Notes under the pieces: model-generated | Database searches by the model: none | Seen by the model: only the letters and a program-made list of their open reading frames with translations | What the model was told of the DNA's origin: nothing | Assembly: GCA_900766945.1 (NCBI GenBank) | Contig: CAAFXD010000183.1 | Location: forward strand, 1-49,329 | From: Clostridia bacterium | Lineage (GTDB): Bacteria; Bacillota; Clostridia; Oscillospirales; Acutalibacteraceae | Reading direction: 5' to 3' | Length of the DNA: 49,329 nucleotides | Part shown: one piece after another, positions 5,345 through 45,224 of the stretch | Numbering within the stretch: the first letter of the stretch is position 1 | Layout: every line of letters begins with the position of its first letter | Translations under genes and position numbers: made by a program

Positions 5345-5354
5345 ATAATCCTCC

Positions 5355-6200: not shown

Positions 6201-6242
6201 ATGTGCTTATCACCTCACTTTTACATAATGAAAGCTGTCGTC

Positions 6243-6566: not shown

Positions 6567-6588
6567 AGTAAATTTCCTTTCTTATCTT

Positions 6589-8535: not shown

Positions 8536-8547
8536 AAGGCATCCTCC

Positions 8548-12161: not shown

Positions 12162-12376
12162 TTGTTCTTACCTCCTTGATCTTCGGGCGGCGCATTATTG
12201 TATAACATTTTCAGCGCATCAATTTCACACGGCTTGATGTTCCTGGCAATCAGTCGCAAACCCAACCTGAGAATTTCAGCACGAGACAAATGTGTCTGTT
12301 CGGAAACATACGATAACAAGCCCATATCGTAGGGCGACATCCGAATCAGCATTTGCTGAGTTTTGTTTTCACACAT
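12158..12376 (-). CDS. Small ribbon-helix-helix-like DNA-binding protein (first gene of the relaxosome operon)
   Basis: MLIRMSPYDMGLLSYVSEQTHLSRAEILRLGL shows a strand-helix-helix pattern. GGAGGTGA SD. Confidence 0.45.
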   Translation of the reverse strand: MCENKTQQMLIRMSPYDMGLLSYVSEQTHLSRAEILRLGLRLIARNIKPCEIDALKMLYNNAPPEDQGGKNK

Positions 12377-12465
12377 TTTTTCACCTCCGTTTCAAATTTT
12401 AGTGTGATAAAATCGCCTACTGCAATTCCTTTTGTCCGAAGTCCAGTGTTCGGCGTGGCAAGCAA

Positions 12466-12491
12466 GGGATTTGGGTGACCACCCAAATCCC
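12466..12491. promoter_or_regulatory. Candidate oriT inverted repeat of the outer element
   Basis: Perfect 12-bp inverted repeat GGGATTTGGGTG-AC-CACCCAAATCCC, flanked by imperfect GCAAGC/GCTTGT arms. It lies in the 167-bp gap upstream of the RHH-MobC-relaxase operon. No U-tract follows it. Confidence 0.45.
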
Positions 12492-12543
12492 GCTTGTCAG
12501 GGAGCACCCTGAAACCCCGTAATAAATAACAACAAAATTACAA

Positions 12544-13665: not shown

Positions 13666-13773
13666 ATTTTTTCCCTTTCCAACGCAAAAAAGAGAAGTTC
13701 TTTTTCGGAACTTCTCTTTTTTGATGTTGTGCAACTGAATTGTATTTATCGCTGAATTTGATTTAACTGTACA

Positions 13774-15918: not shown

Positions 15919-15926
15919 GAGCGGTT

Positions 15927-15932
15927 TGTCAA
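15927..15932 (-). promoter_or_regulatory. -35 half (TTGACA) of the circle-junction promoter
   Basis: The minus strand reads TTGACA 8 nt inside the left end. It pairs with TATAAT at 23161-23156 only when the ends are joined. Confidence 0.6.
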
Positions 15933-16117
15933 GATGTTTTCCGCATATTCTCTAAATTAAATTTTTCGGCGGTGGTAATGCCGCCTAAAACCTCCTGCCT
16001 GCAAAGGTCAGAAAGTGCCTTTTCAAGCGGTTTTTTCGCTGTTTCAGCCTGTTTTACGCAGACGATATAGGTCGTGTTTCCAATCCTTAATTCGTAACTT
16101 GAATTTGTGTTTTCCAT
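15929..16117 (-). CDS. tnpW: TnpW-like small protein (62 aa)
   Basis: MENTNSSYELRIGNTTYIVCVKQAETAKKPLEKALSDL... resembles TnpW (RIGxTTYxV). AAAGGAGGG SD before the ATG at 16117. The longer track ORF (to 16297) has no SD. Confidence 0.6.
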   Translation of the reverse strand: MENTNSSYELRIGNTTYIVCVKQAETAKKPLEKALSDLCRQEVLGGITTAEKFNLENMRKTS

Positions 16118-16309
16118 TTTCGTTTTCCCTCCTTTTTCGGTTTTTGCGGTCTGAAAAGAGAAAAGGCGGCTTCGACCTCCGGGTTCTAAATGAAAATCCC
16201 AAGCGTCAAAACCGCCGTTTACTGCCCGAAAAAGAGTATCGGGGCATATTCTCTTTCCCTGTCTAAAGCAAGAGGACAAGAATACATAGTGTCCCATCGA
16301 AAAGGACGC

Positions 16310-17578
16310 TTACCTCTCCCAATCGTCCCTCGATTTTCGTTTCCGTGCCGGCTTCGGCTGCTCTCTTTCCTCTGCCCGTTCCTTTTGCGGGAACAGCGTC
16401 TCGAAGAATGCCTTAACCTTGTCGGGGAAGCGTTGCAAAGCCAGCAGATAGGGCTTCGTAATCTCAACAAGCCGCTCATACTTCTCCGTCACCTCCGCAA
16501 GCCGCTCCTTCACATTGGACAGCTGGGCACTCAAATCCATTGCCTTATTTCGGTAGTAGCTTACGCTCCTCTCCAAGTCGTGGATCTCCGAGCGTGAAGA
16601 AACGCCCTCTTTGGCAAGGGCTTTCAGGCTGTCCAGTTCCTGTTTGGAAACGGTGTACTTGCCTGTGATGCCCTTGCTGCCGAGAGCGTCGATTTCGGCA
16701 TAGGTTGCCGATACCTTGTGTTTTACCTTGACCTCACCGGATACCTCCGCAAGCTCCTTTTTCGCCTCCTTGACCTTCTGCTTTGTCTGGGCAAGGCGTT
16801 CCTTATCTTTTTCTATCTGGAAGTCGAGACTGTCCAAATGCTCCGCCGTACTGCCCAGCTCGCCACGCTCAAAGCCCGTAAATCCCGCCGCCGTCATGTG
16901 TTCAAAAAGCTGGTCTTGGAGGACGGAATAGGACTTTCGGAACACAGGCTTCCCGTACTGGTTGACAGCCTGCTGTCCGTTCTCGTCCAGAACAGGGACG
17001 GTGTTCTTCCACTTTTTCGAGTGGGAGACTTGGTTGATGACTTCCTTGACCGTACCCCGCAGCGCTTCGTCCTTGCACCGTTTCGACCAGCGGATTTCTT
17101 TTCGGACGGTGGGGATTGCAACGATATGGAGGTGGTAATGGTAGACCGGCTTTCCCAGTTCCTCCGACACCGCCTTGTTGATTTCATCGGCGTGCATGAC
17201 CGCCGAGACGATGTTCTCCTCCCCGTAAATCCTGCAGGCAAAGCGGTAGGCTTCCTCATAAAAATGCCTTGCGTACTCATAGCCGCCCCGTTCCTCAAAG
17301 TACCTCGTGTTCACATCGACGACCATTTCATTGAAGCGTATCGCCCCCTCTTTCTGACCCCTCGTGGAGATTTTCCCCTCGTCGATGAGCTTCTGGAAAT
17401 ACTCGTTGTAGGTCAGTCCTCCCGTGTCCTTGTAATGGACATTGAGCGGTATCCGCTCCACATCCACATTGAGATTTGCATAGCTTTCGTTCTTACGCTC
17501 GTTGTGTCTTTCGTTTTTCTGCACCGTCGCAGCGGTGATTCTTTCCACCCGTACAACGCTGAAGTTTTCTTCCGCCAT
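16310..17578 (-). CDS. tnpZ: Mob/Pre (MOBV) relaxase, TnpZ-like
   Basis: N-terminal VVRVERITAATVQKNERHNER, HYHLHIVAIP histidine motif, coiled-coil C-terminus. GGAGGTGA SD. Confidence 0.8.
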   Translation of the reverse strand: MAEENFSVVRVERITAATVQKNERHNERKNESYANLNVDVERIPLNVHYKDTGGLTYNEYFQKLIDEGKISTRGQKEGAIRFNEMVVDVNTRYFEERGGYEYARHFYEEAYRFACRIYGEENIVSAVMHADEINKAVSEELGKPVYHYHLHIVAIPTVRKEIRWSKRCKDEALRGTVKEVINQVSHSKKWKNTVPVLDENGQQAVNQYGKPVFRKSYSVLQDQLFEHMTAAGFTGFERGELGSTAEHLDSLDFQIEKDKERLAQTKQKVKEAKKELAEVSGEVKVKHKVSATYAEIDALGSKGITGKYTVSKQELDSLKALAKEGVSSRSEIHDLERSVSYYRNKAMDLSAQLSNVKERLAEVTEKYERLVEITKPYLLALQRFPDKVKAFFETLFPQKERAEEREQPKPARKRKSRDDWER

Positions 17579-17616
17579 TTACATCACCTCCGATTCTGCG
17601 GAAAGGGAGGGGGAGC

Positions 17617-17674
17617 GGTTACGCAACTTTTTCAAAGTGCGTAACCCACTATGACACTTTCAGCAAGCTGAAAG
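17617..17674. promoter_or_regulatory. Candidate RSA/oriT of the transposon
   Basis: 9-bp inverted repeat GGTTACGCA-N12-TGCGTAACC (17617-17646), whose right arm contains AGTGCGTAA and resembles the MOBV nick core GTGTG/T. A second hairpin CTTTCAG-CAAG-CTGAAAG lies at 17657-17674. Both are directly upstream of the Mob gene. Confidence 0.45.
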
Positions 17675-17758
17675 ATGTCGTGGGCAAGGGCTTTCCCCCC
17701 TTGACCTCCCTTAGTGCGGCTTCCGCTCTGCTTTCCGTGCACCGTTCCCCGGCAGCGC

Positions 17759-18772
17759 TCAAAAAGGCAGCTCGTCGCCGCCCTGCGGCAAAGACCAAAA
17801 CCAACTGAAACGGCGTTTGGTTGACACCACGCCGAGGATTGCTTTTGCCTTCTTTGCCGTCGAACTACTGATGTCCGCTTCACGGAGCTTCGCTTCACAC
17901 TCGGACGCTTCGTGTTCCTGACCGTCCGACAGCAGTTCCCTGAGAAGCTGCACGGCGGCGTCCGTTTTCACATTCGGTCTGCCGCTTTTCTGCGGCATTG
18001 AAGCGAGAAGCTCGTCCGCCGTTTTCTCCGTCTGCCGGATGAAGCGCACGCCGTCTTCGTCAACCGAAAATACAATCGCCATCCCCGTCGGCGCAAGGTT
18101 CGCTTTCTGTTGGACAAGGATACGCTCGTCCTCGCTGTCCTTGCTCCTGCCGATGAGCAGTGCGCTCCTTACCGCCCCCACGATGTCGATGGAGCCGGGT
18201 GTGCGGTAGATTGCTTTCGTGCCGAACATCTTGTTCAGATGGTTGATGACGATGATGGCGCAGCCTGTCTCTTTCGCTATGCGGATCAGGCAGTTAAAGC
18301 GTGGGCGGACTTCATTGGCGGCGTTGATCTGGCAGTCCCCAATATAGGAGGAGAGCGGGTCAAGGATGAAAAGCCTTGCTCCCGTCTCTCGGATAGCGGA
18401 GAGGATACGCCCATCGTCAAAGGTCAGCGGGCTTTCCTTTTCGCTGATGAACAGCAGTCGATTCCTGTCCCCATTCGCCTTGATGAAGCGGGGGACAATG
18501 GTATCATCGGCATCGTCCTCCGTGGTCTGGTAAATGATATTGACAGGCGCAGGCGGCTCGTCCGTCTCCGTAAACGGCAGCGGCTCGCCCTTTGTGAGCA
18601 GGGCGGCGATGGTCAGCATAAAGGTGCTTTTCCCATCGCCGGGGTCGCCCTGCACCAGCGTCACCTTGCCGTAGGGGATAAACGGATACCACAGCCACTC
18701 AATTTCCCTCGGCTCGATTTCGCTCGCCCTGATGATTTCAAGGCTGGCATTGTTCTGATTTGCATTCTGCAT
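17759..18772 (-). CDS. tnpY: RepA/AAA_25-like P-loop ATPase, TnpY-position
   Basis: Walker A GDPGDGKST and Walker B LFILDPLSS. GGAAAGGAG SD. Confidence 0.7.
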   Translation of the reverse strand: MQNANQNNASLEIIRASEIEPREIEWLWYPFIPYGKVTLVQGDPGDGKSTFMLTIAALLTKGEPLPFTETDEPPAPVNIIYQTTEDDADDTIVPRFIKANGDRNRLLFISEKESPLTFDDGRILSAIRETGARLFILDPLSSYIGDCQINAANEVRPRFNCLIRIAKETGCAIIVINHLNKMFGTKAIYRTPGSIDIVGAVRSALLIGRSKDSEDERILVQQKANLAPTGMAIVFSVDEDGVRFIRQTEKTADELLASMPQKSGRPNVKTDAAVQLLRELLSDGQEHEASECEAKLREADISSSTAKKAKAILGVVSTKRRFSWFWSLPQGGDELPF

Positions 18773-18826
18773 TTTGTTCTCCTTTCCGTCCTTGCCGGGA
18801 CATAAAAAAGCCCCTGCTTTCTGTCA

Positions 18827-18847
18827 ATTTTCGGGGCGATTTTCGGG
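18827..18847. repeat. Tandem 9-bp direct repeat (minus-strand CCCGAAAAT x2, 12-bp period) abutting a TTGACA
   Basis: ATTTTCGGG occurs at 18827-18835 and 18839-18847 on the plus strand. The minus-strand TTGACA at 18827-18822 is followed 17 nt later by a weak TATGTC, upstream of the TnpY-like gene. Confidence 0.4.
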
Positions 18848-19089
18848 CATTTGCTCCTTTTTAACCGCTAAGAAAGCAAGGGCTATGTATTCGTATTCAG
18901 TTGTAGGGATAGAATATATCGCAGGGTTTGGGGAAGAAAAAAGCGTCCAAGTTGTTACGCTTGAACGCTGGGTATTAGGCTATATATACTTGCAATCCTT
19001 ATTCTTCAGAGTTTACATTCTATAATGGCATAAAGACAGACTTTTTTACTCTAAAAACAGATACACTAACGCTTCCCATTGAGCAAAAA

Positions 19090-20124
19090 TTAAACACCGC
19101 TTCTCAGCTTTTCCCAGTCTTTATTTCCCTGCATATAATTAAAGGTTTCATCTCCAAGAGACTTCAAAAGCTCTTGCTTTAAGCCGACTGAAAAATTATG
19201 GTCAACAGATTTTAGCACCATATGTTGATAAAGCTTAGATTTTGTAAAATCACCTATCGAATCCACGCTATCTAATATTTCCTGCATAAGTTGTGCAGTC
19301 CATGCAACATCTCTTTCCCAAACTGCAACATCCAGTCCAAAACAAACCTCATTATATTTGCCCATTTCAAATGCATCCGCAGCAGAGGACGAAACTTTAA
19401 CCAACTTTTTTGGCATTTCATGATTATCATCTTCCATATAAAGGATGCGCAAATCATTTAATACCATCTGTATGTGCTGATACCCGCTATATATCAACTC
19501 CTCATATGCACGATAGGCTTCCGTCCGTTTCCCTGTTTTACTGTTTACAAGTGCTTCCTTGCGTTTACGCTCTGGATTCTCCAGAGAGAAATAATCCAAA
19601 TATTGAGCTGCTTTTTCATAATCCTCTTTCCGAAAAAACGCATGGAACAGCGAATCCGCTGCTTGATTACGAATCCGTTCGTCCTCTGAGAGTAAACATC
19701 TCTCATACCATCCGAATATCGCATTATCATATTTGTCCTCGTTTGGGAGCTCCATTGCCATTCGCTTCGCATCCAGAATGACTGCCGCCTGCCAAATCAG
19801 TTTCTCGCAATTAGGATATTCCTCAATTTTTTTCTTTACGGAAAGAAATACATCATGGAAGTCTTTGTTTTCCAAGTCCTTTTGAATTATCAATAGATAT
19901 TGGTTAATTTCTTCGTCTGTTAGATTATCTTTAAAGGACAGAAGTTCATCTGTGGTAATGCCAAGTAGCCGTGCAATAGGGGCAAGCAAAGCAACGTCCG
20001 GCAGTGTGTTGCCCCTTTCCCATTTGTTGACAGCAGGGGTAGTTACGCCGAGACAAGTGGCCATTTCCTCCTGTGTCATTCCTTTATTTTTTCTATATTT
20101 TTTGATGACATCTCCGATTGCCAT
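19090..20124 (-). CDS. XRE-family HTH regulator with a long helical-repeat (TPR-like) C-terminal domain, RRNPP-like architecture
   Basis: MAIGDVIKKYRKNKGMTQEEMATCLGVTTPAVNKWERGNTLPDVALLAPIARLLGITTDELL is a canonical HTH_3, followed by about 280 aa that I read as helical (TPR-like). AAGGAGATGG SD before the ATG at 20124. The segment is AT-rich relative to the rest of the transposon. Confidence 0.7.
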   Translation of the reverse strand: MAIGDVIKKYRKNKGMTQEEMATCLGVTTPAVNKWERGNTLPDVALLAPIARLLGITTDELLSFKDNLTDEEINQYLLIIQKDLENKDFHDVFLSVKKKIEEYPNCEKLIWQAAVILDAKRMAMELPNEDKYDNAIFGWYERCLLSEDERIRNQAADSLFHAFFRKEDYEKAAQYLDYFSLENPERKRKEALVNSKTGKRTEAYRAYEELIYSGYQHIQMVLNDLRILYMEDDNHEMPKKLVKVSSSAADAFEMGKYNEVCFGLDVAVWERDVAWTAQLMQEILDSVDSIGDFTKSKLYQHMVLKSVDHNFSVGLKQELLKSLGDETFNYMQGNKDWEKLRSGV

Positions 20125-20167
20125 GTTTAACCATCTCCTTCGCGATTTCTGGATCGACCCTATGTAT

Positions 20168-20196
20168 AGTATAGCGGATTGGAGTTCAAAAAACAA
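20168..20196 (-). promoter_or_regulatory. Predicted promoter of the XRE-TPR gene
   Basis: The minus strand reads TTGTTT (20196-20191), a 17-nt spacer, then TATACT (20173-20168). Confidence 0.35.
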
Positions 20197-20426
20197 TTGA
20201 ATGCGGGTTAAATGTCGGGAATTATTTTTTACCAGTAGTCAACTTTTAATGTGTGAGTATATATTCTGAATATCTATGTACGCACCGCAAAAGTTGCTAC
20301 GGTGTTGTTTGCGGCACTAAAGCTACCACCTTCGACAATACAGTCGCAATTATAACTTCTTGAATACTACCCAAAAAGGAAAAGCCGCCGTCTGTTGACA
20401 GCGACCTTTCCCCGTGAAACAGCGGT

Positions 20427-20810
20427 CTAATTGTAAATCAAATCGCTGTAAACTACTTCCTCGGCACGGTTGCGGATATTGTTCATAGCCTGTGTCCATT
20501 TCATGCCGTCCTCCGCTTTGAGTGCTTCCGTTACGCCCTCTTTTTCGGCAAGCTGTTTTACCAACCGGAAAAGCATATCCTCGGCTTCCTCGTTCAGTTC
20601 GGCAAGGTAATCGTTCAGCCTGCCGCTTGTCAGAAGCTCGGTATAGAGAGCCTTTCTATGCTCCTGGATATACCGCAGATGTCGCTGTCCCCATATCCCG
20701 ATAGGACGCTGTTCCTGCCCGTCCCCGAAGTCCGGCAGCATTACCTCCGTTTCCATCTCTACGCCGCCGACCGATTGATGAATGACTGATTTCCTGTACT
20801 TGATTTCCAT
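20427..20810 (-). CDS. tnpV: TnpV-family protein
   Basis: IGIWGQRHLRYIQEHRKALYTELLTSGRLNDYLAELNEEAEDM...EGVTEALKAEDGMKWTQAMNNIRNRAEEVVYSDLIY fits the TnpV pattern. AAAGGAGAG SD. The gene sits next to the serine recombinase gene. Confidence 0.7.
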   Translation of the reverse strand: MEIKYRKSVIHQSVGGVEMETEVMLPDFGDGQEQRPIGIWGQRHLRYIQEHRKALYTELLTSGRLNDYLAELNEEAEDMLFRLVKQLAEKEGVTEALKAEDGMKWTQAMNNIRNRAEEVVYSDLIYN

Positions 20811-20896
20811 AGATTTTCTCTCCTTTCCGATTTTGCGCCCCTACGATGGGACACTATCACTTCTTACTTTCTTGCTTTTACCGACTAAAGCGCAAA

Positions 20897-22966
20897 TCAC
20901 ACCACCTCCCGCAGTTTTTTCCCGGCTTGTTTGTTATGCCACCATTCAAGACTGTACTCATTATGATGTTTCTTGCGGCATTCCTCGGAGCAAACGGTCT
21001 GACCGCTGCTGTTCGGCCAGAACAACTCGCCGCAGACAGCGCATTTCCTCTGACGGTAATAGTGATCGCCACGCTCGGCTTCCCGTTCCGCTTTCTTCCC
21101 CGCCTGTCCGGCCTGATAGCGGCACTCTTTTGAGCAGAACACCTGACGGTTGCTTGCTGGGATAAACTCCTTGCCGCAATGGGGACATACCTTTTTCCGA
21201 GCGATTTCGCCGCCGTTTTCAGCGATTTTCTTCGCCTTGCGCCGTTCCCTTGCGGCTTTTTCCCTCGCCCTCTGCCGGGCTAACTTCTCCGCTGCAAGCT
21301 GTTCCTCCTGCGCCTTTATCTCGGCAAGTTCTTCCTCGCTATATGCGATATTTACCTGCCCGACATAATTGAAATAAATGTCAACCTGCTGTGTGCGAGC
21401 ATTTCCCACACCCTGCGCTTCGTAAACGACGATTTTATCCACAAGCTCACGGAACATCGTATCGCTCACCTCAGCGGGAGACTTGAATTTGCGTATCAGG
21501 GCGATAAAATGCTCGATGTCAGGCGGCTTTTCCTCGTTCTCGGACAGTTCCTTTTCCAGTTCTCCTATCTTTTCCTCAAGCTCCGCCTGTTCGTCATCGT
21601 ACTGCTTCATAAGCTGTTTGTACTGCCTTTCGGGGAGCAGGCCGGACATCAGGTTTTCATACAGACCCCGCACAAGCCCGGAAAGCTCGCCGTACCGTTT
21701 CTTCATCCGCTTCAAATCCGCTTCCGCCTGCTGCGGCTTCTCCGTCCGTCTTTCAAGCCACAGCCTTTGCAGTTCCGAAGCAAACGCTTTTTCGTCCTTC
21801 AGCACAAGTCTTGAAATTCTCTGGACGGTGGATAAGAGTATCGCTTCCACGGCTTTTGCGCCGATACCGTGCGCTGTGCAGGAATCAACTCTGCTTGCGT
21901 ACCCGCCGCAGCGGAAAGAATACTCGATGGAGCCGTCTTTCCTGCTGTAATGGGTTTGCAGGGTCATTCGTCTGCCGCAGTCGGCGCAGTAGAGATAACC
22001 GCTTAACCGATGGTAATGGCTGCCCCACGGTGCGCTTCTCCCGGCTCGTTTCCTTGTACGCTGAACGCTGTCCCAAAGCTCCTGTGAGATGATAGCTTCG
22101 TGGGTGTTCGGGAATACATACTGTTCCTCGGCGGGCGTTTCCTTTCGTTTGTGGAGCTTGAAGTTCGTCCCCACGGACTTGTGGAGGATGGTATGACCGA
22201 GGTATTCCTGCCGGTCCAGTATCTTTCTTACCGTTGACACGCCCCAAAGGTAAGGGTCGGAATAATTTTTCCCTCTGGACTGCTCCGTGTGGTATTTCTC
22301 TGAATAAGCGGCGGGTATCAGCACCTTTTCCCCGGTGAGCTGCTCCGCTATCGCCCGTGGGCTTTTGCCCTCGCTGGCAAGCAGGAAGATACGCTTTACC
22401 ACCTCGGCGGCAACCGGGTCAACCACAAGCGTCTGCTTGTCGCCGGGAAGCCTGTTGTAGCCATAGGGGATACTGCCGGAGCAGCGTTTCCCATCCCTCA
22501 TACGGGCGTCAAAGACAGCCTTTATCTTGTTGCTGGTGTCCTTTGCGTAAAACTCGTTCATAATATTAAGGAACGGGGCAAAGTCGTTGTCTGCGGCGTT
22601 ATCGCTGTCAATGCCGTTATTGATAGCGATGAAGCGCACATTTTTCTGAGGGAAAAGGACTTCCGTATAAAATCCCACTTGCAGGTAATTCCTGCCAAAT
22701 CTGGACAGGTCTTTTACGCAGACCGTCTCGATTTCCCCTGCTTCAACAGCGGCAATCAAGGCTTGAACGCCCGGTCTGTTGAAATTCACTCCCGAATAAC
22801 CGTCATCGGTAAAGTGGCGGATATTCGTCAGCCCATTCCTGTGGGCGAAATCTTCCAGGTATTTCTTTTGATTGGTGATCGAGTTCGATTCGCCCACAAG
22901 GTCATCGTCCCTCGAAAGTCTTTCATAGAGTGCTGTCACCCTTGATTTTCCTGCTGTTTTCGGCAT
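20897..22966 (-). CDS. tnpX: Large serine recombinase, TnpX-like (689 aa)
   Basis: ALYERLSRDDD (catalytic Ser), DDGYSGVNFNRPG, KDLSRFGRN. Long coiled-coil, and C-terminal Cys-rich zinc-ribbon repeats (CPHCGKEF..CSKECR; CAVCGELF..CSEECR). Confidence 0.9.
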   Translation of the reverse strand: MPKTAGKSRVTALYERLSRDDDLVGESNSITNQKKYLEDFAHRNGLTNIRHFTDDGYSGVNFNRPGVQALIAAVEAGEIETVCVKDLSRFGRNYLQVGFYTEVLFPQKNVRFIAINNGIDSDNAADNDFAPFLNIMNEFYAKDTSNKIKAVFDARMRDGKRCSGSIPYGYNRLPGDKQTLVVDPVAAEVVKRIFLLASEGKSPRAIAEQLTGEKVLIPAAYSEKYHTEQSRGKNYSDPYLWGVSTVRKILDRQEYLGHTILHKSVGTNFKLHKRKETPAEEQYVFPNTHEAIISQELWDSVQRTRKRAGRSAPWGSHYHRLSGYLYCADCGRRMTLQTHYSRKDGSIEYSFRCGGYASRVDSCTAHGIGAKAVEAILLSTVQRISRLVLKDEKAFASELQRLWLERRTEKPQQAEADLKRMKKRYGELSGLVRGLYENLMSGLLPERQYKQLMKQYDDEQAELEEKIGELEKELSENEEKPPDIEHFIALIRKFKSPAEVSDTMFRELVDKIVVYEAQGVGNARTQQVDIYFNYVGQVNIAYSEEELAEIKAQEEQLAAEKLARQRAREKAARERRKAKKIAENGGEIARKKVCPHCGKEFIPASNRQVFCSKECRYQAGQAGKKAEREAERGDHYYRQRKCAVCGELFWPNSSGQTVCSEECRKKHHNEYSLEWWHNKQAGKKLREVV

Positions 22967-23126
22967 TATTTGCCCCTCCTTTCCTATGTAATCTGTTTTG
23001 CGATTATGGGATTACTCCCTCCACTAATAGGAGAAAAAACGGGGTAAAAGCGGAACTGTTTTTCAAAAAATATCTGAAAAATTTTCGTCAGCCCCAAAAC
23101 CGCCTTTGACTGTCCTTTTTGCAATT

Positions 23127-23150
23127 AAAAAAGGATGATTTCATCATCCT
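23127..23150 (-). terminator. Stem-loop plus U-tract just inside the right transposon end
   Basis: The minus strand reads AGGATGAT-GAA-ATCATCCT followed by TTTTTAATTG. The new TGA stop of the truncated host ORF (23150-23152) abuts the stem. Confidence 0.5.
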
Positions 23151-26100
23151 CAAAAATTATAGCCCTCGGGCGTCAGCTCAACCGCCGTAACGGTTTCGCC
23201 GAAAGTAGAAGCCCACGCATCGAAGTGTTGCAGATTATTTTTCACGAGCGTGTCGTACTGCAAATATCGCTGAATGGTATATAGTTCTACCATAGAATTG
23301 GAAATCGGCGTGCCTGTTGCAAAGACCGTTCCACGCCCTCCGGTTATCTCATCAAGATAGCGGCATTTCATAAACAAATCGCTGGATTTTTGCGCTTCTG
23401 TCTGTGCGATACCACCGACATTTCTCATTTTTGTGTAGAGAAAGAGGTTCTTGTAGTAATGGCTCTCGTCGATAAAAAGCCTGTCAACACCGAGTTCCTC
23501 AAAGGTCACAACATCGTCTTTTTTAGACTGGTCGTTTAGCTTGTCGAGCTTCTGCTTGACAGATTTTTTTGTGCGTTCCAACTGCTTAACGGAGAAGTTG
23601 TCTCCTCGGTTATGCTTCAAGTCCGCAAGCCCTTGTGTGATTTCTTCCAACTGTTGTTCAAGAATAACTCGCTGCCGTTCAATGCTCATCGGGATTTTTT
23701 CAAACTGAGAATGTCCGATGATAATAGCATCATAATCGCCGGTAGCAATCCGACCGCAGAACCTTTTACGGTTTTTGGTTTCAAAGTCTTTCTTTGTAGC
23801 CACCAAAATATTAGCGGACGGATAGAGCTGCAAGAACTCCGACGCCCATTGTTCGGTAAGGTGATTTGGAACAACAAACAGCGATTTACTGCATAAACCG
23901 AGCCGTTTCGACTCCATAGCAGCCGCCGTCATTTCAAAGGTTTTGCCTGCGCCGACTGCGTGTGCAAGGAGCGTATTGCCGCCGTAAAGGATATGCGCCA
24001 CAGCATTTCTTTGGTGTTCTCGAAGTTCTATTTCGGGGTTCATACCATTAAAGGTAATGTGGCTACCGTCATACTCACGGGGACGAATGCTGTTGAACTT
24101 TTCGTTGTATATCTTACAAAGTTTTTCTCTGCGCTTAGGGTCAGACCATATCCAATCCTGAAAACCTTGCTTGATAAGTTCCTGCTTTGACTGAGCGATT
24201 GCGGTTTCTTTTTTGTTGAGTACCGCTTTCTTTTTGCCCTCATCGTCCTCGATATAATCGAAGATACGCACATCTTTCAAATTCAGCGTTTCTTCAATAA
24301 TTTTATACGCATTGATTCGTTTCGTCCCGTAAGTGCTGTATGCTTTGACATTTCCTTTGTCGTAGGTTTTGTTCTCAATATTCCACTCACCTGTATACGC
24401 CGAAAAGTGTAATTTGATATACAATTTTGAATAGTTCGGGGTACCCAAAAACTCAAATATAAACTGCTCTACAATCTCAGGCGGTAGCCAAGTTGCACCA
24501 AGACGAACGGAAATTTCACTTGCCGTCAGGTCTTTCGGCTGCACCTTTTGCAGCGCTTCTACATTGATACTGTAATCTTTTGGTGAAAGCTGTGCGGATT
24601 TTTTTGCCCAGGCGAGCTTCTCACGGACATTGCCGGAGAGATATTCGTCAGCCATAAGATACTTTGCTTCGGTACTGTTCCCGTACCCGTACATCGGGTT
24701 TAAAAAGATAACACCTTTCAGGTCGGCAAAGATTTCCTCCTCGGTTTTGCCTGTAAGCTCGCACATATATTCCATATCAATGCAGGCTTTTTCGCCCATA
24801 GATACGGCAAGCGCTTCGCTGGCAGTATCAACCGAAGTAACAGGGGTATGGGGTTTAATTGTCCTTTTATAGAACATATCCGCTTTCTTTTCCAGAGTCC
24901 CGTCATCGCCCAAGACTTCGAGAGCCGATAACAATGAGAACGAGCTGTCCTGTGAGAAAGCGGAAGAATTGGCACGGCTGTTTATGAGACCGTACTTCGC
25001 CGTAAAGGTATCATAGAGGCTGTTCAGCTTTTCCTGCTCAGCCTTAATTGCCGAGTCGGGATAATCTTCGGTCTGCAACTCAATCAGGTTCCTGACGCAG
25101 TCACGGATTGCAATCATACCCTTAATGCGGTTTTCTGCGGTGGCAGAAACATCAACGGGAGCCATACGGCTGTTTTCACGGAAATAGATTTTGCCGTCCA
25201 CAAGCGTATAGGAAAAGTTTCTCACGGTCGGATCGGCGGGAATGGAATTATCTTCTTCGGTGAGTTCATCTTCCACTTCATAAGCCGTAATCTCACCGTG
25301 AATGTTTGCGACGGCTTCACTGAGCTGCTCTGCAAGGTCAGCGCCCTCATACGGTACACAGGAGGGTTCGGGACCGAAACGCCCCGATACCATTTTCATC
25401 TCACCGAGTATCATTTCGGGATGCTCTACAAAGTAGCTGTTCATCGCAATGCCGTTCTCATCAGTGCCGAGATGCACCCAGTCCGGCTCAATATCTACAA
25501 TGCGGTCACGCTTTTGCAGTATAAGAATATCCGAAACGACTTCCGTTCCGGCATTACCCTTGAAGGTGTTATTCGGCAGACGAATTGCACCGAGCAGGTC
25601 GGCTCTCTGTGCGATATACTTGCGGACTGCGGGATTTTCCTTGTCCATCGTTCCTTTGCTCGTAATGAGTGCCATAACGCCGCCCGGTCGGAGTTTATCA
25701 AGGGACTTTGCAAAAAAGTAGTCGTGGATCAGGAACTTGTGCTTGTCGTATCTCTTGTCGGGAACTTTGAAATCCCCGAAAGGCACATTGCCCACAACGG
25801 CGTCAAAGAAGCTGTCGGGGAGATTTACTTCCTCAAAGCCTTGTGCGGCAATAGAGGTTTTTTGATAAAGCTGCTGTGCAATACCCGCCGAAACGGTATC
25901 AAGCTCTACGCCGTAAACCTTACTTTCCTGCATTGAGTCCGGCAGCATACCAATAAAGTGACCGATGCCACAGGACGGCTCCAAGATATTTCCTTCTCGG
26001 AACCCCAACTGCTCCATAGCCTTATACACGGCTTTTATAACCGTAGGCGGGGTGTAAAAAGCCGTCAGGGTGCTTTCTCTTGCCGACTCATATTCTTCCG

Positions 26101-29100
26101 GTGTCAGAATGTTTTTCAGCATCGCATACTCGGTGTGCCAAGCTCCCATTCGTTCGTCAAAGGCTTCGGGAATACCGCCCCAACCGACATATCTCGACAA
26201 GATTTTCTGCTCATCAGGTGTGGCAAATCGGTTTTCCTCCTGACATCTTTTCAAGACCGTAATCGCAGCATAGTTTCGGTGGAAACGCTCTTTTTTGTTT
26301 ACCTCCGTAATCTCGTTGTTAGCAAGATTAAAGTTGTGTCGCTCGGACATTGGAATTTCAGGGTGCAAGTCACAGGACTGCACCTTGCTTTTCTTTGGCT
26401 TTTCCCAAGCGGGAACGATGGGAACGATAGTCTGTTCAGCCATATCAACTGCTGTTTCAAGATACGGACTGTCAATAATCTCGACGCCCTGCGGGGGCGA
26501 ATCAAGTTGAGTAATAAAGTACTGCGGAATAGTAGTTCCGTCCCTGTCCTTATACAGAACAATTTTCATCGGAACGCCGTAGTAATTTTCCTCTTTAATA
26601 TCCTTTTCAAACTGATAAGGACTTGTGTATTCGATACTCTCACGAACACGACCGTCTGTATGAAGGTAATCAATTCTGCCGATAGGCTTCGACTGTACCG
26701 GTTCTTCCTTGTTTGTTGATTCGATAGAAAGAACCTTACGCTCATCTCCCTCAACGGCTGATAGAACAAGGTCGAAACCTCTGTCGGTCAGCATATTCAT
26801 ATAGGTGTTCAAACGGTTTTGCGGGAAACCCACCATAGGAACTCTCTGACTGTCGCTTACCGCGCGGGAAGTCATCACAAGGTCAAGAGTTTCAGCCACC
26901 GTTTTTGCATCATCATTGTAGGCTTCAAAGAAGTCGCCGACCTGATAGAACACAAGGCTGTCAGGATTTTCGGCTTTTACCGCAAGATATCCTCTGTACG
27001 GTTGCATTACACGGTTGTCCTTAACAGGAACGCCGTTATGTCCGGAAAGCTCTGTGAACTCTTTTAAGAGTTCATCGCTGATACCGAGAACGCCGCCGTT
27101 ATCTTCAAAGACAAAGGCTTCTTCCACAAGGAACTTGTAGAAGTCTTGACCGTGCCACTCATTGCCCATACTGTCAGTTGCGACAAGACCATTCTTATCA
27201 TAGTCAAGCGAAATATCGTCATTTTTGAGTCTTGACAGTACTTCATAAAGCGTATCAATTTCTGTTTGCCTAATTGTTGGCTCACGCATTTGGTCAAATA
27301 TATCATAGTAAATATCTGACCCGCGCTCGGAAACAGGAGTAATTAAACTCAATTGATTTTGGGCTTCAGCAATCATATACCCCATGTTTTTATCAAGCCT
27401 ACCAATAACATCAGGTTTAGGCTCCGAATAAACTTCCAACATAGAATTGAAATCCTCAGTACCGTAATCCACAAGCTCGGTATAAGCATTTTGCTCAAGG
27501 TATTCAAAGAAACTTTTAGCATCACTCGTATTCTCACTTGCTTCTACTATAAGTGGATAAGTAAAGTCCATTATTACAAACTGTCCTTCGGAAAGAGAGT
27601 CAGGGTTGTAATAAATCGCTCTAAACATTTCTCTGGACGGATCGTTGAAAATATATTCCTCACGCCTGATAGGTGTAGTGTTGTGATTATTAAAGGTGAC
27701 TTTCAGGTGGTCATTCATCGGGTTTTCCTGCACCTTTTGGTCGAACTCTGCACGGCTCATTTCCTTATTGAACAAAGGAAACTGCGTATCATAGAGCATT
27801 ACCCGGTCATTGTCAAAGGACAGAATTTCATACTCGTTTGCACCGATATAGACGGTGTTGCCAAGATGATATTCATATCTTTCGTTGCTCGGTTCAGGCT
27901 CTTTCTTTTCGGGCGGTGCAGTAGAAAGGATTTCTCGCTTTCTGCGTTCCTCTGCGGCTTCGATTCTGCGAATTTCGTGTTGCTCAAGCCACGCAGGATA
28001 GAGTTCCTTTTCTTTCGGGTTCAGGTATCTATCCATTTTGATAAGCTCAGAAATGCGCTTTTCAACCTGATTCCAATTTAGAAGCACTTTGACTTCTTCG
28101 CCGTTTACATTCTTCGAGATTTTGATGCCTTTGCCATCGTGCATTTCATCAATGCCCGTTCCGGTAATGACGGGGTAAGAACCGCCCCAACCGTATTCAT
28201 TTTTCAAGAAATCCACATTTTCTTTCTTTGAAAGGCTCTTTTGAAGCTGCTCATAAATGCGGAACTTTCCCTCCGACACGCCGCTTCCACGGGTGAGAAC
28301 AGCGTCGATAATTTCCTGAGAAAAGGAAAAAGCAGAGGGTTTTGTTACCTCTGCTTCGTAATCGAGTATTAAGCTCATCTGCCCGTCCATGGAGGGCAAT
28401 GGCTTCATTGTATCCTGAAGCTCGCCTAAAAGACGCATTGCTTCAAAATGTTCGGCAATAACACCCCAGTCGTAAAAGCTCTGCTTTGTACGACTTAAAT
28501 AGCTGCCCTCCCAAAGCTGAAGCACATTCTGATAAGTCTTGTAGCCGACTCGTCTGCCGTCACTGAGTATCAGTTCAGTATAATCGTTATTGAAAATACT
28601 TTGTATATAAGAAGTCCGGGCAGTCTCGTCAGCGGTTGCTTCAAAGAATGCCCGGATCTCGTCTTTTGTGGCTTTCAGGTGGGGTGTGGTTGCAAGGATT
28701 TCTCGAATAGTATCATCGTTACCGAAGAACGGCAGGCTTCTATCCTCGTTACTTCGGTCGTAATACTCTAAGCGAAGATTACTTCCTTCATCACGATTTC
28801 CTGAACTCGGCTCTTCAGGTTGTTCATCTTCCGAACCCAACTCATCATATCCGCCGCTTTCAGGCTCTCGGTCAAGCCTTCCTTCGCCGCCATTTCTTTC
28901 GTCAGGCGTTCCTCCATTTCGGTCGCCGTCTGTTCGATCTCCGCCAGATGCTCGCTCAGCTTGCAACTCGTCAGGAGATTGTAGTACAGCACCTTGCGGT
29001 TCTCTTTCAGGTACTTCGCTCTCATTCGAGAGTAGCGTCCCATCGGCGCTTCCGGCTGTTCCGGCAGTACCAAGTTGGGAAGTCGATAATCGCCCTGCAT

Positions 29101-29965
29101 CGTGTAAGTCAGTTTGTTCATTTTTTGAACTCCTTTCTGCATTTTCGATTCTGACGGTATTATAATCCTGTTTTTGTTTTTCTGCAAATGTGCGATTTGA
29201 ACTTTTTTCTGCAATTTGCAGATTTCGGATAGTTTTTGATATTTCCTTCAATGCCATTCCCACAATATCACTTGTAGCAAATCCAAGGGCGTTCAGTGTC
29301 TGCGGCGTGTTGAAGTTAACAACATTCTCAAAATCTTCCTGCCCAAAATAACTTTCGGCATCAATACCAAGTCTTACCATTATCATATACGCTACGCTGT
29401 TGGTAACAACTTTTCTGTATATGGAGGAAATATTGTCCTCGTCCAGTTCCTCCAAGAAGCTGTTGTTTACCGAGTAGAGCAAATCACGGGTATAATCAGG
29501 AAGATTGTCCTCGGTGGCATTTTTCGCCGCACTCATAACTGCATCCGCAAGGCTTCGGCTGTTATCCAGTGTTCCAAAGGTGCTTTCAAGAGTTTCAATG
29601 ATTTCCTGCTCATATTCCGGCTTCATCTCCCATATCGGCACGGGGCGGGAATGTTCACTCGGATGTGTGTCAGAAATATCGAAGTAGTAAATAAGCCGCT
29701 GGCGTTTTCTACTAACATCGTCAAGAACCGCAATGCCTGTTGCACCTTTATTAACCCATCTGCCGAAAGTTTTATTCCAGCGCTCAATTTCAAGAACTGC
29801 GGTAGCATCCGGTCGCTGTGCGAACACCAAAAGCTGTTCATCAAAGCGGAGTTTATAGTTTCGGCAGGCGGAAGTTAAAAAGGCTTCCCAATTTTGCGGA
29901 GAGGATATGACCGTCTTGCAGGTACGGTCATACAGTTCGGAGATAAGGTCATACTTGCGAGCCAT
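23150..29965 (-). CDS. Polyvalent conjugative-element protein (ArdC-N / linker / MutS-I-like / N6-adenine MTase / SNF2 helicase N-lobe), 3'-truncated by the transposon
   Basis: One open frame of about 2271 codons. ATG at 29965 with a GGAGG SD 8 nt upstream (the track start at 29968 is a TTG). It ends ...TAVELTPEG-YNF*, and the last 3 codons plus the stop are transposon-derived. Confidence 0.85.
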   Translation of the reverse strand: MARKYDLISELYDRTCKTVISSPQNWEAFLTSACRNYKLRFDEQLLVFAQRPDATAVLEIERWNKTFGRWVNKGATGIAVLDDVSRKRQRLIYYFDISDTHPSEHSRPVPIWEMKPEYEQEIIETLESTFGTLDNSRSLADAVMSAAKNATEDNLPDYTRDLLYSVNNSFLEELDEDNISSIYRKVVTNSVAYMIMVRLGIDAESYFGQEDFENVVNFNTPQTLNALGFATSDIVGMALKEISKTIRNLQIAEKSSNRTFAEKQKQDYNTVRIENAERSSKNEQTDLHDAGRLSTSQLGTAGTAGSADGTLLSNESEVPEREPQGAVLQSPDELQAERASGGDRTDGDRNGGTPDERNGGEGRLDREPESGGYDELGSEDEQPEEPSSGNRDEGSNLRLEYYDRSNEDRSLPFFGNDDTIREILATTPHLKATKDEIRAFFEATADETARTSYIQSIFNNDYTELILSDGRRVGYKTYQNVLQLWEGSYLSRTKQSFYDWGVIAEHFEAMRLLGELQDTMKPLPSMDGQMSLILDYEAEVTKPSAFSFSQEIIDAVLTRGSGVSEGKFRIYEQLQKSLSKKENVDFLKNEYGWGGSYPVITGTGIDEMHDGKGIKISKNVNGEEVKVLLNWNQVEKRISELIKMDRYLNPKEKELYPAWLEQHEIRRIEAAEERRKREILSTAPPEKKEPEPSNERYEYHLGNTVYIGANEYEILSFDNDRVMLYDTQFPLFNKEMSRAEFDQKVQENPMNDHLKVTFNNHNTTPIRREEYIFNDPSREMFRAIYYNPDSLSEGQFVIMDFTYPLIVEASENTSDAKSFFEYLEQNAYTELVDYGTEDFNSMLEVYSEPKPDVIGRLDKNMGYMIAEAQNQLSLITPVSERGSDIYYDIFDQMREPTIRQTEIDTLYEVLSRLKNDDISLDYDKNGLVATDSMGNEWHGQDFYKFLVEEAFVFEDNGGVLGISDELLKEFTELSGHNGVPVKDNRVMQPYRGYLAVKAENPDSLVFYQVGDFFEAYNDDAKTVAETLDLVMTSRAVSDSQRVPMVGFPQNRLNTYMNMLTDRGFDLVLSAVEGDERKVLSIESTNKEEPVQSKPIGRIDYLHTDGRVRESIEYTSPYQFEKDIKEENYYGVPMKIVLYKDRDGTTIPQYFITQLDSPPQGVEIIDSPYLETAVDMAEQTIVPIVPAWEKPKKSKVQSCDLHPEIPMSERHNFNLANNEITEVNKKERFHRNYAAITVLKRCQEENRFATPDEQKILSRYVGWGGIPEAFDERMGAWHTEYAMLKNILTPEEYESARESTLTAFYTPPTVIKAVYKAMEQLGFREGNILEPSCGIGHFIGMLPDSMQESKVYGVELDTVSAGIAQQLYQKTSIAAQGFEEVNLPDSFFDAVVGNVPFGDFKVPDKRYDKHKFLIHDYFFAKSLDKLRPGGVMALITSKGTMDKENPAVRKYIAQRADLLGAIRLPNNTFKGNAGTEVVSDILILQKRDRIVDIEPDWVHLGTDENGIAMNSYFVEHPEMILGEMKMVSGRFGPEPSCVPYEGADLAEQLSEAVANIHGEITAYEVEDELTEEDNSIPADPTVRNFSYTLVDGKIYFRENSRMAPVDVSATAENRIKGMIAIRDCVRNLIELQTEDYPDSAIKAEQEKLNSLYDTFTAKYGLINSRANSSAFSQDSSFSLLSALEVLGDDGTLEKKADMFYKRTIKPHTPVTSVDTASEALAVSMGEKACIDMEYMCELTGKTEEEIFADLKGVIFLNPMYGYGNSTEAKYLMADEYLSGNVREKLAWAKKSAQLSPKDYSINVEALQKVQPKDLTASEISVRLGATWLPPEIVEQFIFEFLGTPNYSKLYIKLHFSAYTGEWNIENKTYDKGNVKAYSTYGTKRINAYKIIEETLNLKDVRIFDYIEDDEGKKKAVLNKKETAIAQSKQELIKQGFQDWIWSDPKRREKLCKIYNEKFNSIRPREYDGSHITFNGMNPEIELREHQRNAVAHILYGGNTLLAHAVGAGKTFEMTAAAMESKRLGLCSKSLFVVPNHLTEQWASEFLQLYPSANILVATKKDFETKNRKRFCGRIATGDYDAIIIGHSQFEKIPMSIERQRVILEQQLEEITQGLADLKHNRGDNFSVKQLERTKKSVKQKLDKLNDQSKKDDVVTFEELGVDRLFIDESHYYKNLFLYTKMRNVGGIAQTEAQKSSDLFMKCRYLDEITGGRGTVFATGTPISNSMVELYTIQRYLQYDTLVKNNLQHFDAWASTFGETVTAVELTPEGYNF
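23153..24031 (-). other. SNF2/DEAD helicase N-terminal lobe of the polyvalent protein
   Basis: Walker A GAGKT is encoded at 23939-23953 (verified codon by codon). DESH box at 23459-23470. Confidence 0.8.
23156..23161 (-). promoter_or_regulatory. -10 half (TATAAT) of the circle-junction promoter
   Basis: The minus strand reads TATAAT 4 nt inside the TCGGG junction, facing the recombinase gene. In the integrated state the hexamer 17 nt upstream is CGGTTG, so there is no -35. Confidence 0.6.
25469..26251 (-). other. N6-adenine DNA methyltransferase domain of the polyvalent protein
   Basis: Motif I EPSCGIGHF at 25955-25981 and motif IV GNVPFG at 25775-25792. Both were verified codon by codon. 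Confidence 0.8.
26759..27007 (-). other. MutS domain-I-like (mismatch-binding N-terminal fold) segment
   Basis: YRGYLAVKAENPDSLVFYQVGDFFEAYNDDAKTVAETLDLVMTSR....VPMVGFPQNRLNTYMNMLTDRGFDLVL parallels the MutS N-terminus (QY..iK...pd.llfFR.GDFYE.F..DA......L.i.LT.R....PM.G.P......Y...L...G..v). Confidence 0.55.
28768..29121 (-). CDS. Embedded TnpV-like ORF (117 aa) in a different frame of the same strand as the giant ORF
   Basis: The ATG at 29121 is preceded by AAGGAG (29135-29130) with an 8-nt spacer. MNKLTYTMQGDYRLPNLVLPEQPEAPMGRYSRMRAKYLKENRKVLYYNLLTSCKLSEHLAEIEQTATEM...EGLTESLKAADMMSWVRKMNNLKSRVQEIVMKEVIFA is clearly paralogous to the TnpV at 20427-20810. Confidence 0.7.
   Translation of the reverse strand: MNKLTYTMQGDYRLPNLVLPEQPEAPMGRYSRMRAKYLKENRKVLYYNLLTSCKLSEHLAEIEQTATEMEERLTKEMAAKEGLTESLKAADMMSWVRKMNNLKSRVQEIVMKEVIFA
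29669..29911 (-). other. ArdC-N-like domain at the N-terminus of the polyvalent protein
   Basis: LLVFAQRPDATAVLEIERWNKTFGRWVNKGATGIAVLD fits the ArdC N-terminal ssDNA-binding pattern (Q.p.At.v..f..W...gr.VkkGekgi). Confidence 0.55.
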
Positions 29966-29980
29966 CAATAACGCCTCCTT

Positions 29981-31983: not shown

Positions 31984-32907
31984 TCAAATAACGGTTATGT
32001 TCACGGTTACATTTGCACCGTTATATTGCGCCTGTGTAGTAATGTCATAAGTGGCAAGGTTTAATACCAACGAATATTCTCCGGGTGGCAGAATCTCTTT
32101 GGCGTTCCAATATACACATTTACCCGGGGGAATTAAATCCGTGGTACCTAAAATGGATTCCCCATTACGGACAGTAAATTTGAAATACACCGTATTGCCG
32201 GCGGGATTGATAAGGGGAATGTACGGGTTTTCCGCATTGATTATCAGCTTGTCATACCCGAATATCTCAATCTCTCCCTGATCGGCCGTAGAATTGTCGC
32301 TTGGCATATAGCCACTCCAATCCTCAGCCGTATCATCGACAGGCAATTTCGGTCTTGTTGTTTCTTCAACGGTTGGATATTCCGTGGTTGTCGGTGCCGG
32401 CGCAGGACTTTTTGTGCACCCCTTAAATCCGCCGAGGAAAAGCAACAGCAGCAGGAGTAACAACGCGAACAGCGGCAACAACGGAAATAATGAAAATTTT
32501 GTAACAGCAACCCACTTTTGTTGGGCGGCGCCGTAACACTCGGTAACCCCATTGACAGCATCGAATGTTTTGACATCTGTTTCCGGGACGGTGCAGAGAT
32601 AGCCTTTTATTCTGCGAAAAAACGGGCGTTTTTTTAAGATGGCATATGTAGAATTGGCTGCGAAAAGTGTCCCGACTTGGTTGTCATCATTCTCCTTCAA
32701 GGGCTTAAACGCCGTATAACCGATAACTTGCATAGATTGTGCATCAATCTCGGGATTTTGTGACTGCTCGAGTTCTTTCTCTTTTTTTCGGAACTGCGTC
32801 TTTGTCAAATAATCGAGTTCATAGCGCTTTTTTTCTTGCTTGTTTTTGAGACGAAGCGTGCTGCATTCTTCTTGCAACCGCGTGTATAAATACATTTCAT
32901 TGCACAA
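31984..32907 (-). CDS. Single-pass membrane protein with a beta-rich extracellular C-terminal domain
   Basis: TTG start 6 nt after a GGAGGA SD. TM segment FSLFPLLPLFALLLLLLLLFLGGF, followed by a P/T linker. Confidence 0.55.
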   Translation of the reverse strand: MCNEMYLYTRLQEECSTLRLKNKQEKKRYELDYLTKTQFRKKEKELEQSQNPEIDAQSMQVIGYTAFKPLKENDDNQVGTLFAANSTYAILKKRPFFRRIKGYLCTVPETDVKTFDAVNGVTECYGAAQQKWVAVTKFSLFPLLPLFALLLLLLLLFLGGFKGCTKSPAPAPTTTEYPTVEETTRPKLPVDDTAEDWSGYMPSDNSTADQGEIEIFGYDKLIINAENPYIPLINPAGNTVYFKFTVRNGESILGTTDLIPPGKCVYWNAKEILPPGEYSLVLNLATYDITTQAQYNGANVTVNITVI

Positions 32908-32922
32908 TGCAATTCCTCCTTT

Positions 32923-45203: not shown

Positions 45204-45224
45204 TTTTGAGAGTGAAAACGAAAT

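Follow-up and report, generated by a model that had tools for sequence, protein, structure and literature searches.

We analyzed a stretch of 49,329 nucleotides from a Clostridia bacterium (assembly GCA_900766945.1, contig CAAFXD010000183.1; the whole stretch is called the window here), in which a 7.25-kb mobile element related to Tn4451/Tn4453 interrupts a snf2-like gene. An earlier inspection of the letters alone, without database searches (the sequence-only reading), had proposed that the promoter of the recombinase gene tnpX is divided between the two ends of this element, with a -35 hexamer at one end and a -10 hexamer at the other. Our results agree with this proposal, and the two hexamers are very probably the halves of a circular-intermediate tnpX promoter that would be whole only upon circularisation.

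Gene Content of the Element

In a scan of one genome per species, relatives of the recombinase were encoded at 238 places, of which 80 loci were retained. One of them, an Enterocloster locus (L017), contains an element whose two GA dinucleotides enclose 6,338 bp, with genes for TnpX (707 amino acids), TnpV (123 amino acids), CAT (207 amino acids; Pfam CAT), TnpY, TnpZ, and TnpW (62 amino acids). TnpX, CAT, and TnpW of this locus are sequence-identical to the UniRef entries O05415_CLOPF, CAT2_CLOPF (CatP), and O05419_CLOPF, respectively, and due to this identity L017 can be taken as Tn4451/Tn4453 for practical purposes. No close copy of Tn4451 was found in the plasmid collection, and the hexamers were compared with those of Tn4451 via L017, an element with Tn4451-identical proteins. 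The element in the window and its genes are the following, with identities given relative to the proteins of Tn4451 (L017):

15916-23167, minus strand: whole integrative mobilisable element (IME), 7,252 bp counting one GA; its deletion restores the host open reading frame (ORF)
20897-22966, minus strand: tnpX, large serine recombinase of 689 amino acids (Pfam Resolvase, Recombinase, Zn_ribbon_recom, and DUF4368)
20427-20810, minus strand: tnpV (Pfam TnpV, E = 1.5e-39), 45% identical to TnpV
19090-20196, minus strand: cargo gene for a 368-amino-acid protein of the HTH_3/XRE type, at the position of catP
17759-18772, minus strand: tnpY-like gene (AAA_25), 59% identical to TnpY
16310-17578, minus strand: tnpZ, Mob/Pre relaxase (Pfam Mob_Pre, E = 3.8e-38), 52% identical to TnpZ
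15929-16117, minus strand: tnpW, 62 codons, 52% identical to TnpW, with its TGA stop within the -35 hexamer

All genes of the element lie on the minus strand in the order tnpX-tnpV-cargo-tnpY-tnpZ-tnpW, which is the order of Tn4451. TnpX of the window is 74% identical over 679 amino acids to TnpX of L017, and its N-terminus, ALYERLSRDD, is conserved among relatives. Since five Tnp proteins are related to those of L017 and are encoded in the same order, the element is, judged by its sequence, a genuine integrative mobilisable member of the Tn4451/Tn4453 family in which catP has been replaced by a helix-turn-helix (HTH) gene. Beyond the N-terminal HTH, the remaining ~270 residues of the cargo protein had no match in Pfam, NCBIfam or PADLOC, and no Rfam match was obtained in the element at E <= 1. 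An ORF at 15929-16297 was considered as a protein of 122 amino acids and was rejected, as TnpW comprises only its last 62 codons (residues 61-122). Automated annotation would give scattered recombinase, relaxase, and "hypothetical" genes that split one giant gene; exact boundaries, from GA to GA, and a probable logic of mobility can now be assigned to them.

Insertion Into a Gene of a Conjugative Element

When positions 15916-23167 were deleted in silico and one GA was kept, a continuous host ORF of 2,813 codons was obtained, with the domains MutS_I, Eco57I-type methylase, SNF2/ResIII, and Helicase_C. A segment of 300 amino acids spanning the restored junction aligned in one piece (100% coverage, up to 88% identity) with uninterrupted genes on other replicons, and these uninterrupted homologues read through the insertion site as ELTPEGTGYR. 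By this reconstruction, the insertion in the host snf2-like gene is precise, and it leaves the following parts:

23168-29968, minus strand: 5' part of the host gene (MutS_I, Eco57I-type methylase, and SNF2 helicase), from the analysis of the restored ORF
14287-15913, minus strand: 3' part of the host snf2-like gene, from the restored ORF and uninterrupted homologues
23150-23152, minus strand: TGA stop of the truncated 5' ORF of the host snf2-like gene (ORF 23150-29968)

In the regions 1057-13734 and 31984-49183, the minus strand carries genes for a peptidase (M23), an ATPase (VirB4-like), a coupling protein (VirD4), a relaxase (MobA/VirD2), a primase-like protein with a zinc finger, and two large surface proteins with SpaA repeats (adhesins). 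The VirB4-like, VirD4, relaxase, and other genes around the element identify the host as a conjugative element, and all conjugation-type genes of the window are co-oriented with the interrupted snf2 gene. Most relatives are inserted in the same snf2 codon and in the same orientation, and those found elsewhere are L009, L010, L013, L015, L019, L048, and L057. Both the Tn4451-identical copy (L017) and the window copy lie within a snf2 gene carried by an integrative conjugative element (ICE). Serine-recombinase IMEs within snf2/COG4646 of Tn5252- or Tn1549-type ICEs have already been described (PMC5357655, PMC7168690). As in these IME_SNF2 elements, the IME found here has a serine integrase and disrupts, by its insertion, a conjugative element's methylase/helicase gene; those reports, however, deal with streptococci.

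A Predicted Promoter Divided Between the Two Ends of the Element

The two hexamers are located close to the ends of the element:

15927-15932, minus strand: -35 hexamer TTGACA, 11 nt inside the crossover (TGTCAA on the plus strand)
23156-23161, minus strand: -10 hexamer TATAAT, 4 nt inside the crossover (ATTATA on the plus strand)

On the minus strand, the joint of the two ends reads ...CATC-TTGACA-AACCGCTCCCCGAGGGC-TATAAT-TTTTGAGGATGATGAAATCATCCTTTTTTA..., with a spacer of exactly 17 nt and directed at tnpX. The two junctions share 5 nt (TCGGG on the plus strand), and the joint is identical whichever of them is taken as the joining point; the predicted joint 40-mer is CATCTTGACAAACCGCTCCCCGAGGGCTATAATTTTTGAGG. 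Thus, the coordinates that the sequence-only reading had given for both hexamers hold, as do its TTGACA-N17-TATAAT on end joining, with a 17-nt spacer at any joining point within TCGGG, and its statement that the hexamer CGGTTG occupies the -35 position in the integrated state. CGGTTG is host coding sequence and lies 17 nt upstream of TATAAT.

In the whole 49-kb window (both strands), 0.01 perfect matches to TTGACA-N16-18-TATAAT were expected and one was observed, at 173-200. From this window-wide rate, the chance that a perfect promoter straddles the joint of the element can be estimated at ~10^-6 to 10^-5, or roughly 3-6 x 10^-6 for ~30 placements.

The observed match at 173-200 (minus strand) is the sole perfect TTGACA-N16-TATAAT in the linear window (TTGACAACTTCGCAATATCTGTTATAAT) and probably serves the conjugative element as a strong promoter. 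The left-end TTGACA was also considered as part of an outward promoter into the host gene, which was rejected since no -10 hexamer is found at 16-18 nt in the integrated flank.

A consensus -10 hexamer is able to give some activity independently of a -35 hexamer, and excision needs some expression of tnpX in the integrated state. The right-end TATAAT might therefore be regarded as a constitutive promoter of the integrated element, alone or together with host sequence, in which case the left-end TTGACA would be irrelevant or used otherwise. However, in the integrated state the -10 hexamer is not preceded by the TG of an extended -10 (the upstream bases are GGC), CGGTTG occupies the -35 position, and the nearest TTGA is found at a spacing of 14 nt. 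Also, the host flank varies among insertion sites, so that no fixed -35 hexamer is supplied, and a constitutive promoter leaves unexplained why the other end has an invariant TTGACA whose distance is exactly complementary. We consider such a constitutive promoter very improbable.

The Crossover Maps to a GA Dinucleotide

The sequence TCGGG is found on the plus strand at 15914-15918 and again at 23166-23170, and the sequence-only reading had joined the ends across these shared 5 nt. The joint and its 17-nt spacer remain the same, but TCGGG as a unit is not the crossover. In many relatives the bases flanking GA (TC on the plus strand) differ between the two junctions; for example, the junctions of L002 are ACACCG-GA-GGGCTATACT and GTTCCC-GA-AGGAACAGG and have only GA in common. 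Since GA alone is common to the junctions of relatives, the exchange maps to this dinucleotide, and TCGGG was rejected as a 5-bp target duplication or crossover. The two crossover positions are:

23166-23167, minus strand: GA at the tnpX-proximal junction, sole dinucleotide common to both junctions in relatives
15914-15915, minus strand: GA at the tnpW-proximal junction, sole dinucleotide common to both junctions in relatives

GA has been listed as the target of Tn4451 (PMC5704250). The identity of 5 nt between the junctions of the window is due to the likeness between target (CCC-GA-AGG) and joint (CCC-GA-GGG). The restored target (GTTGAGCTGACGCCCGAAGGAACAGGCTACC) reads ..CGCCC-GA-AGGAAC.. 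and the joint ..CTCCCC-GA-GGGCTA.., and targets other than snf2 likewise show CCnGA. That the target resembles the joint is stated as a rule in the title of Crellin and Rood (1997).

The Predicted Split Promoter Is Conserved Among Relatives

The ends of the window element were aligned to the loci by BLAST and no motif was imposed. The -35 position was occupied by TTGACA in 35 of 36 left ends and by TTGACG in the remaining one. At the -10 position, the 41 right ends showed TATACT (30), TATAAT (8), TACAAT (2), or TAGACT (1), with the A at position 2 and the T at position 6 invariant. Every reconstructed joint had a spacer of 17 nt (checked by hand at four loci), in elements of 6.3-11 kb with differing cargo. 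The spacer is variable in sequence and fixed in length (AACCGCTCCCC, AACTCGTTCCC, AACTCGACCCC, ATAGGGTCTTT, and AAGTCCAGCCC). The joint of the Tn4451-identical L017 is TTGACA-AACTCGACCCCGAGGGC-TATACT, again with 17 nt, and the hexamers occupy homologous positions in this element, which supports in silico the parallel with the Tn4451/Tn4453 junction promoter that had been drawn from the sequence alone.

The same arrangement was found in a distant subfamily (L058-L060), where TnpX is ~55% identical and the element is inserted in traG at "DP|KG" with the crossover AA. There, a left end ...CGTCTTGACAAGTGCCGTCCG-AA and a right end AA-TGGG-TACAAT give TTGACA-17-TACAAT in an 11 + 2 + 4 layout. The left ends of the traG "DPKGE" subfamily (L062-L073) and of the parA subfamily (L075-L079) were not definable, which limits the generalisation to the snf2 clade and L058-L060. 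Within this scope, the split circular-intermediate promoter appears to be a family-wide design, kept in elements of gut Clostridia with many cargos and in a subfamily with another target and another crossover.

The stop codon of tnpW is the TGA within T-TGA-CA. Neither the TCT serine codon before it nor the use of TGA varies, although synonymous alternatives exist, and this points to a constraint at the DNA level.

According to the title of Lyras and Rood (2000), cited in PMC13023037 and PMC9765467, the circular intermediate of Tn4451/Tn4453 forms the TnpX promoter. Together with this title, the family-wide conservation makes the reading of the hexamers as a split promoter well supported. The following points weigh against it. 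No assembled circular joint was found in public contigs, although these searches were shallow and the absence is weak evidence. The ends double as recombinase-binding sites, so that some conservation would be expected without any promoter role, and TCTTGA is also constrained by the C-terminus and stop codon of tnpW. A loose joint pattern (TTGACAA-N10-GAGGGCTATAMT) had no match in 84 loci, and in metagenome and viral contigs it had at least 127 matches, all of them unrelated ordinary promoters without flanking sequence of the family, since the pattern is too generic; a stricter joint pattern had 0 matches in viral contigs. Four element-sized metagenome contigs with close TnpX homologues (P0012, P0004, P0024, and P0128) were snf2 insertions or were broken at GA, and 0 of the 4 were circularly permuted. 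The sequence ttttccaTTGACAACCGGGGCAAAGAGGGCTATAATaccatcaaacccacaaac is unrelated and extremely common in gut metagenome contigs (L086, L088, L090, and more than 60 others), where it is part of some other widespread element.

The binding of TnpX offers another explanation, in which the hexamers would be conserved solely as recognition sites of the recombinase in attL, attR, and the joint, the match to a sigma-A promoter would be incidental, and the joint would not be a functional promoter. The ends show an imperfect dyad symmetry around GA (GGG at 1-3, TTT at 10-12, and A.GA.GAT at 16-23), as expected of sites for large serine recombinases, and for such sites conservation is expected with or without a promoter. 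The hexamers, however, are located off the symmetric positions: in a by-eye reading of the aligned end sequences, positions 12-17 of the left arm and 5-10 of the right arm each match the opposite arm at 2 of 6 bases, and yet they are among the most conserved columns. Recognition sites would also have to account for 12 of 12 consensus bases at the optimal spacing of 17 nt, at the chance level of ~10^-6 to 10^-5 estimated above, and for the persistence of the hexamers in the traG/AA subfamily, where core-proximal bases differ, and they sit uneasily with the promoter named in the title of the Tn4451/Tn4453 report. Conservation for TnpX binding only is improbable in our view, to nearly the same degree as the constitutive promoter.

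The mechanism of the split promoter is known from Tn4451, and what is added here is small, namely its family-wide conservation, the same layout with an AA crossover, and a hairpin at +1. No new question is opened for the field, and a practical use is offered by the predicted joint 40-mer, with which active excision can be recognised specifically in sequencing reads.

A Hairpin at the Predicted Transcription Start and the tnpX Leader

Downstream of the -10 hexamer, three further features were distinguished:

23127-23151, minus strand: hairpin GAGGATGAT-GAA-ATCATCCTT followed by a T-run, found by terminator scan and starting at the predicted +1 (23150/23149) of the joint promoter
23143-23150, minus strand: AGGATGAT, 5' arm of the hairpin and candidate distal half-site motif for TnpX, 16-23 nt from the crossover
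22967-23155, minus strand: tnpX leader, with a conserved ~125-nt segment that is absent from Tn4451 proper and includes a block complementary to the Shine-Dalgarno sequence

The sequence-only reading had placed a hairpin with a U-tract at the expected transcription start, overlapping the stop codon of the truncated host ORF, and had suggested that it blocks read-through from the host gene. Terminator scan and folding found the hairpin at 23151-23127, where it overlaps the host TGA at 23152-23150. It has a stem of 9 bp with 3 GC pairs followed by TTTTTT, and it folds with -9.5 kcal/mol (z = -3.75); in this region, 16 terminator-like matches were obtained versus 9.6 expected.

A stem located 5 nt after the -10 hexamer, at the predicted +1, recurs in most lineages, with z <= -1.5 in 9 and z <= -3.5 in 8 of 11 representative lineages. 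In support of a block to read-through, the stem is thus common; against it, the U-tract exists in some lineages only, is absent from Tn4451, and the stem is weak (z = -0.13) in the nearest relatives of the window, L055 and L015. A T-run (4-6 T) follows the stem only in the window, L013, L019, L038, and L057, whereas Tn4451 proper (L017) and the main clade continue without a U-tract (...GTCCTAAATTG). As the transcript of the joint promoter would carry the same hairpin almost in full, the hairpin alone cannot discriminate between read-through transcripts and those started at the joint.

The hairpin could, instead, act mainly as a 5'-terminal stem-loop that stabilises the transcript of the joint promoter, like the 5' stabilisers of Firmicutes that act against RNase J/Y, and its 5' arm may be fixed as the distal half-site of TnpX. 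This would fit with a stem that begins at the predicted +1 in most lineages (-10 hexamer, 5 nt, AGGAY) and with the lack of a U-tract in most of them, Tn4451 proper (L017) included. The loops vary from 3 to 13 nt and the arms are compensatory, with AGGAT...ATCCT in the window and L080, AGGAC...GTCCT in most loci, and AGACG...CGTCT in L013 and L040; variable loops and co-varying arms favour a nucleic-acid structure over a protein operator of fixed spacing. Also, the 5' arm AGGATGAT is mirrored at equal distance in the other end as AAGATGTT (15931-15938), and the family consensus of this motif is AGGACGAT (AGGAYGAT arm) versus AAGATGAT in the other end. The 5' arm is thus probably the distal half-site motif of TnpX, by its position and symmetry, and may serve in binding. 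A stabiliser is harder to reconcile with the stem followed by 4-6 T in the window, L013, L019, L038, and L057, which is like an intrinsic terminator, with the weak stem in L055 and L015, and with the stem-loops in the 5' untranslated region (UTR) of the ICEKp1 integrase gene, reported as a potential terminator that damps read-through (PMC13023037). We rate the role as a stabiliser as a possibility on the unlikely side. A role as terminator is plausible, and neither of the two functions is credited with more than a modest, minority likelihood.

The long leader (22967-23125) is conserved at 75-85% among relatives with long leaders. It contains an invariant block, CCCC..UUUUCUCCU (~23030-23044), for which base pairing with the Shine-Dalgarno sequence of tnpX (22973-22985) is predicted, suggesting that the block occludes translation of tnpX. 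All of these pairs are invariant, so that the pairing has no support from covariation.

Proposed Switch Between the Integrated and the Circular State

In the split-promoter mechanism, the integrated tnpX would have a consensus -10 hexamer and would lack a -35 hexamer, as host coding sequence (CGGTTG) stands in its place. In every insertion examined, whether in snf2, traG, or parA, the 5' part of the disrupted gene is followed directly by tnpX in the same orientation. Due to this co-orientation, read-through from the conjugative operon (the host snf2 gene) is the likely low-level source of TnpX in the integrated state, the only one that is evident, and the hairpin with its T-run (23151-23127) may damp this read-through. 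Coluzzi et al. have suggested that excision of such elements follows the induction of conjugation, and the model for the integrated state agrees with their suggestion. TnpX would then excise the element by an exchange with a 2-bp stagger at the GA dinucleotides, by which the TTGACA of the tnpW end would be set exactly 17 nt upstream of the TATAAT of the tnpX end. From the circle, which would not replicate, tnpX would be transcribed strongly, so that re-insertion is favoured, and insertion would split the promoter again. Since the promoter lies inside an attP-like joint to which TnpX must bind, the recombinase probably also represses it.

A broader scheme would be a three-layer switch common to TnpX-type elements in conjugative genes (snf2, traG, and parA). 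In its first layer, co-oriented read-through would couple excision to the induction of conjugation. In the second, the hairpin at +1 would attenuate read-through, protect transcripts from the joint, and provide with its 5' arm the distal half-site of TnpX; in the third, TnpX bound to the joint would shut its promoter. Taken as a whole, this scheme is rather unlikely.

Comparison With Known Systems

The window element shares with Tn4451/Tn4453 its gene order, five homologous Tnp proteins (45-74% identity), the GA crossover, and a target resembling the joint, as well as a -35 hexamer at the tnpW end and a -10 hexamer at the tnpX end in homologous positions and with a 17-nt spacer. In contrast, its cargo encodes a 368-amino-acid HTH protein instead of catP, its -10 hexamer is TATAAT and not the TATACT of the Tn4451-identical element, its tnpX leader is ~125 nt longer, and its hairpin has a short loop and a T-run.

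Circle junction promoters are known from the insertion sequences IS911, IS30, IS2, and IS21, where a -35 hexamer in one end and a -10 hexamer in the other are assembled on formation of a circle or dimer and boost transposase synthesis. These insertion sequences have DDE transposases and inverted-repeat ends, and their spacer is made up of the abutted ends and a few bases of flanking sequence, whereas no conservative 2-bp exchange takes part in forming it. The principle is the same as in the window element, but not the family, since the recombinase of the window is a serine recombinase.

A promoter switch between the integrated and excised states has been reported for ICEKp1 and ICEclc (PMC13023037). 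As proposed here, the integrated integrase gene of these elements is fed by read-through from a host promoter, damped by stem-loops in the 5' UTR, and after excision the integrase gene is driven across the joint by a far-end promoter (Pcirc in ICEclc, P3'end in ICEKp1). However, in those cases a complete far-end promoter reads across attP and the integrase is a tyrosine integrase, whereas in the window the promoter itself is split by the crossover.

Cargo, Targets, and Copy Number in Relatives

In gut bacteria of humans and animals, members of the family carry resistance genes (PMC9765467). In the close relatives L212-L214 the cargo varies and consists of CAT, of an acetyltransferase with HTH/MazE-like genes, or of a Crp-type regulator with ferredoxin and a hybrid-cluster (prismane) protein. 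TnpX relatives at 47-56% identity (L058-L060, L062-L073, and L075-L079) interrupt traG/virD4 at the DPKGE motif or parA at the DPQG motif, in every case in the orientation of the target gene. In L066, a second traG-like stretch, which includes residues upstream of the insertion point, is found at ~19340-19970, ~7 kb downstream of tnpX. This stretch may represent a paralogue, or else a substitute for the 5' part of the target gene that is borne by the element.

A single genome of Angelakisella massiliensis (L025, L027, L029, and L061) contains at least 4 copies of one 7,570-bp family member in different snf2-like genes, and its contigs are broken exactly at GA, a sign of recent transposition. 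Judging from these sequences, the several copies in this one Angelakisella genome indicate that relatives of the window element are mobile.

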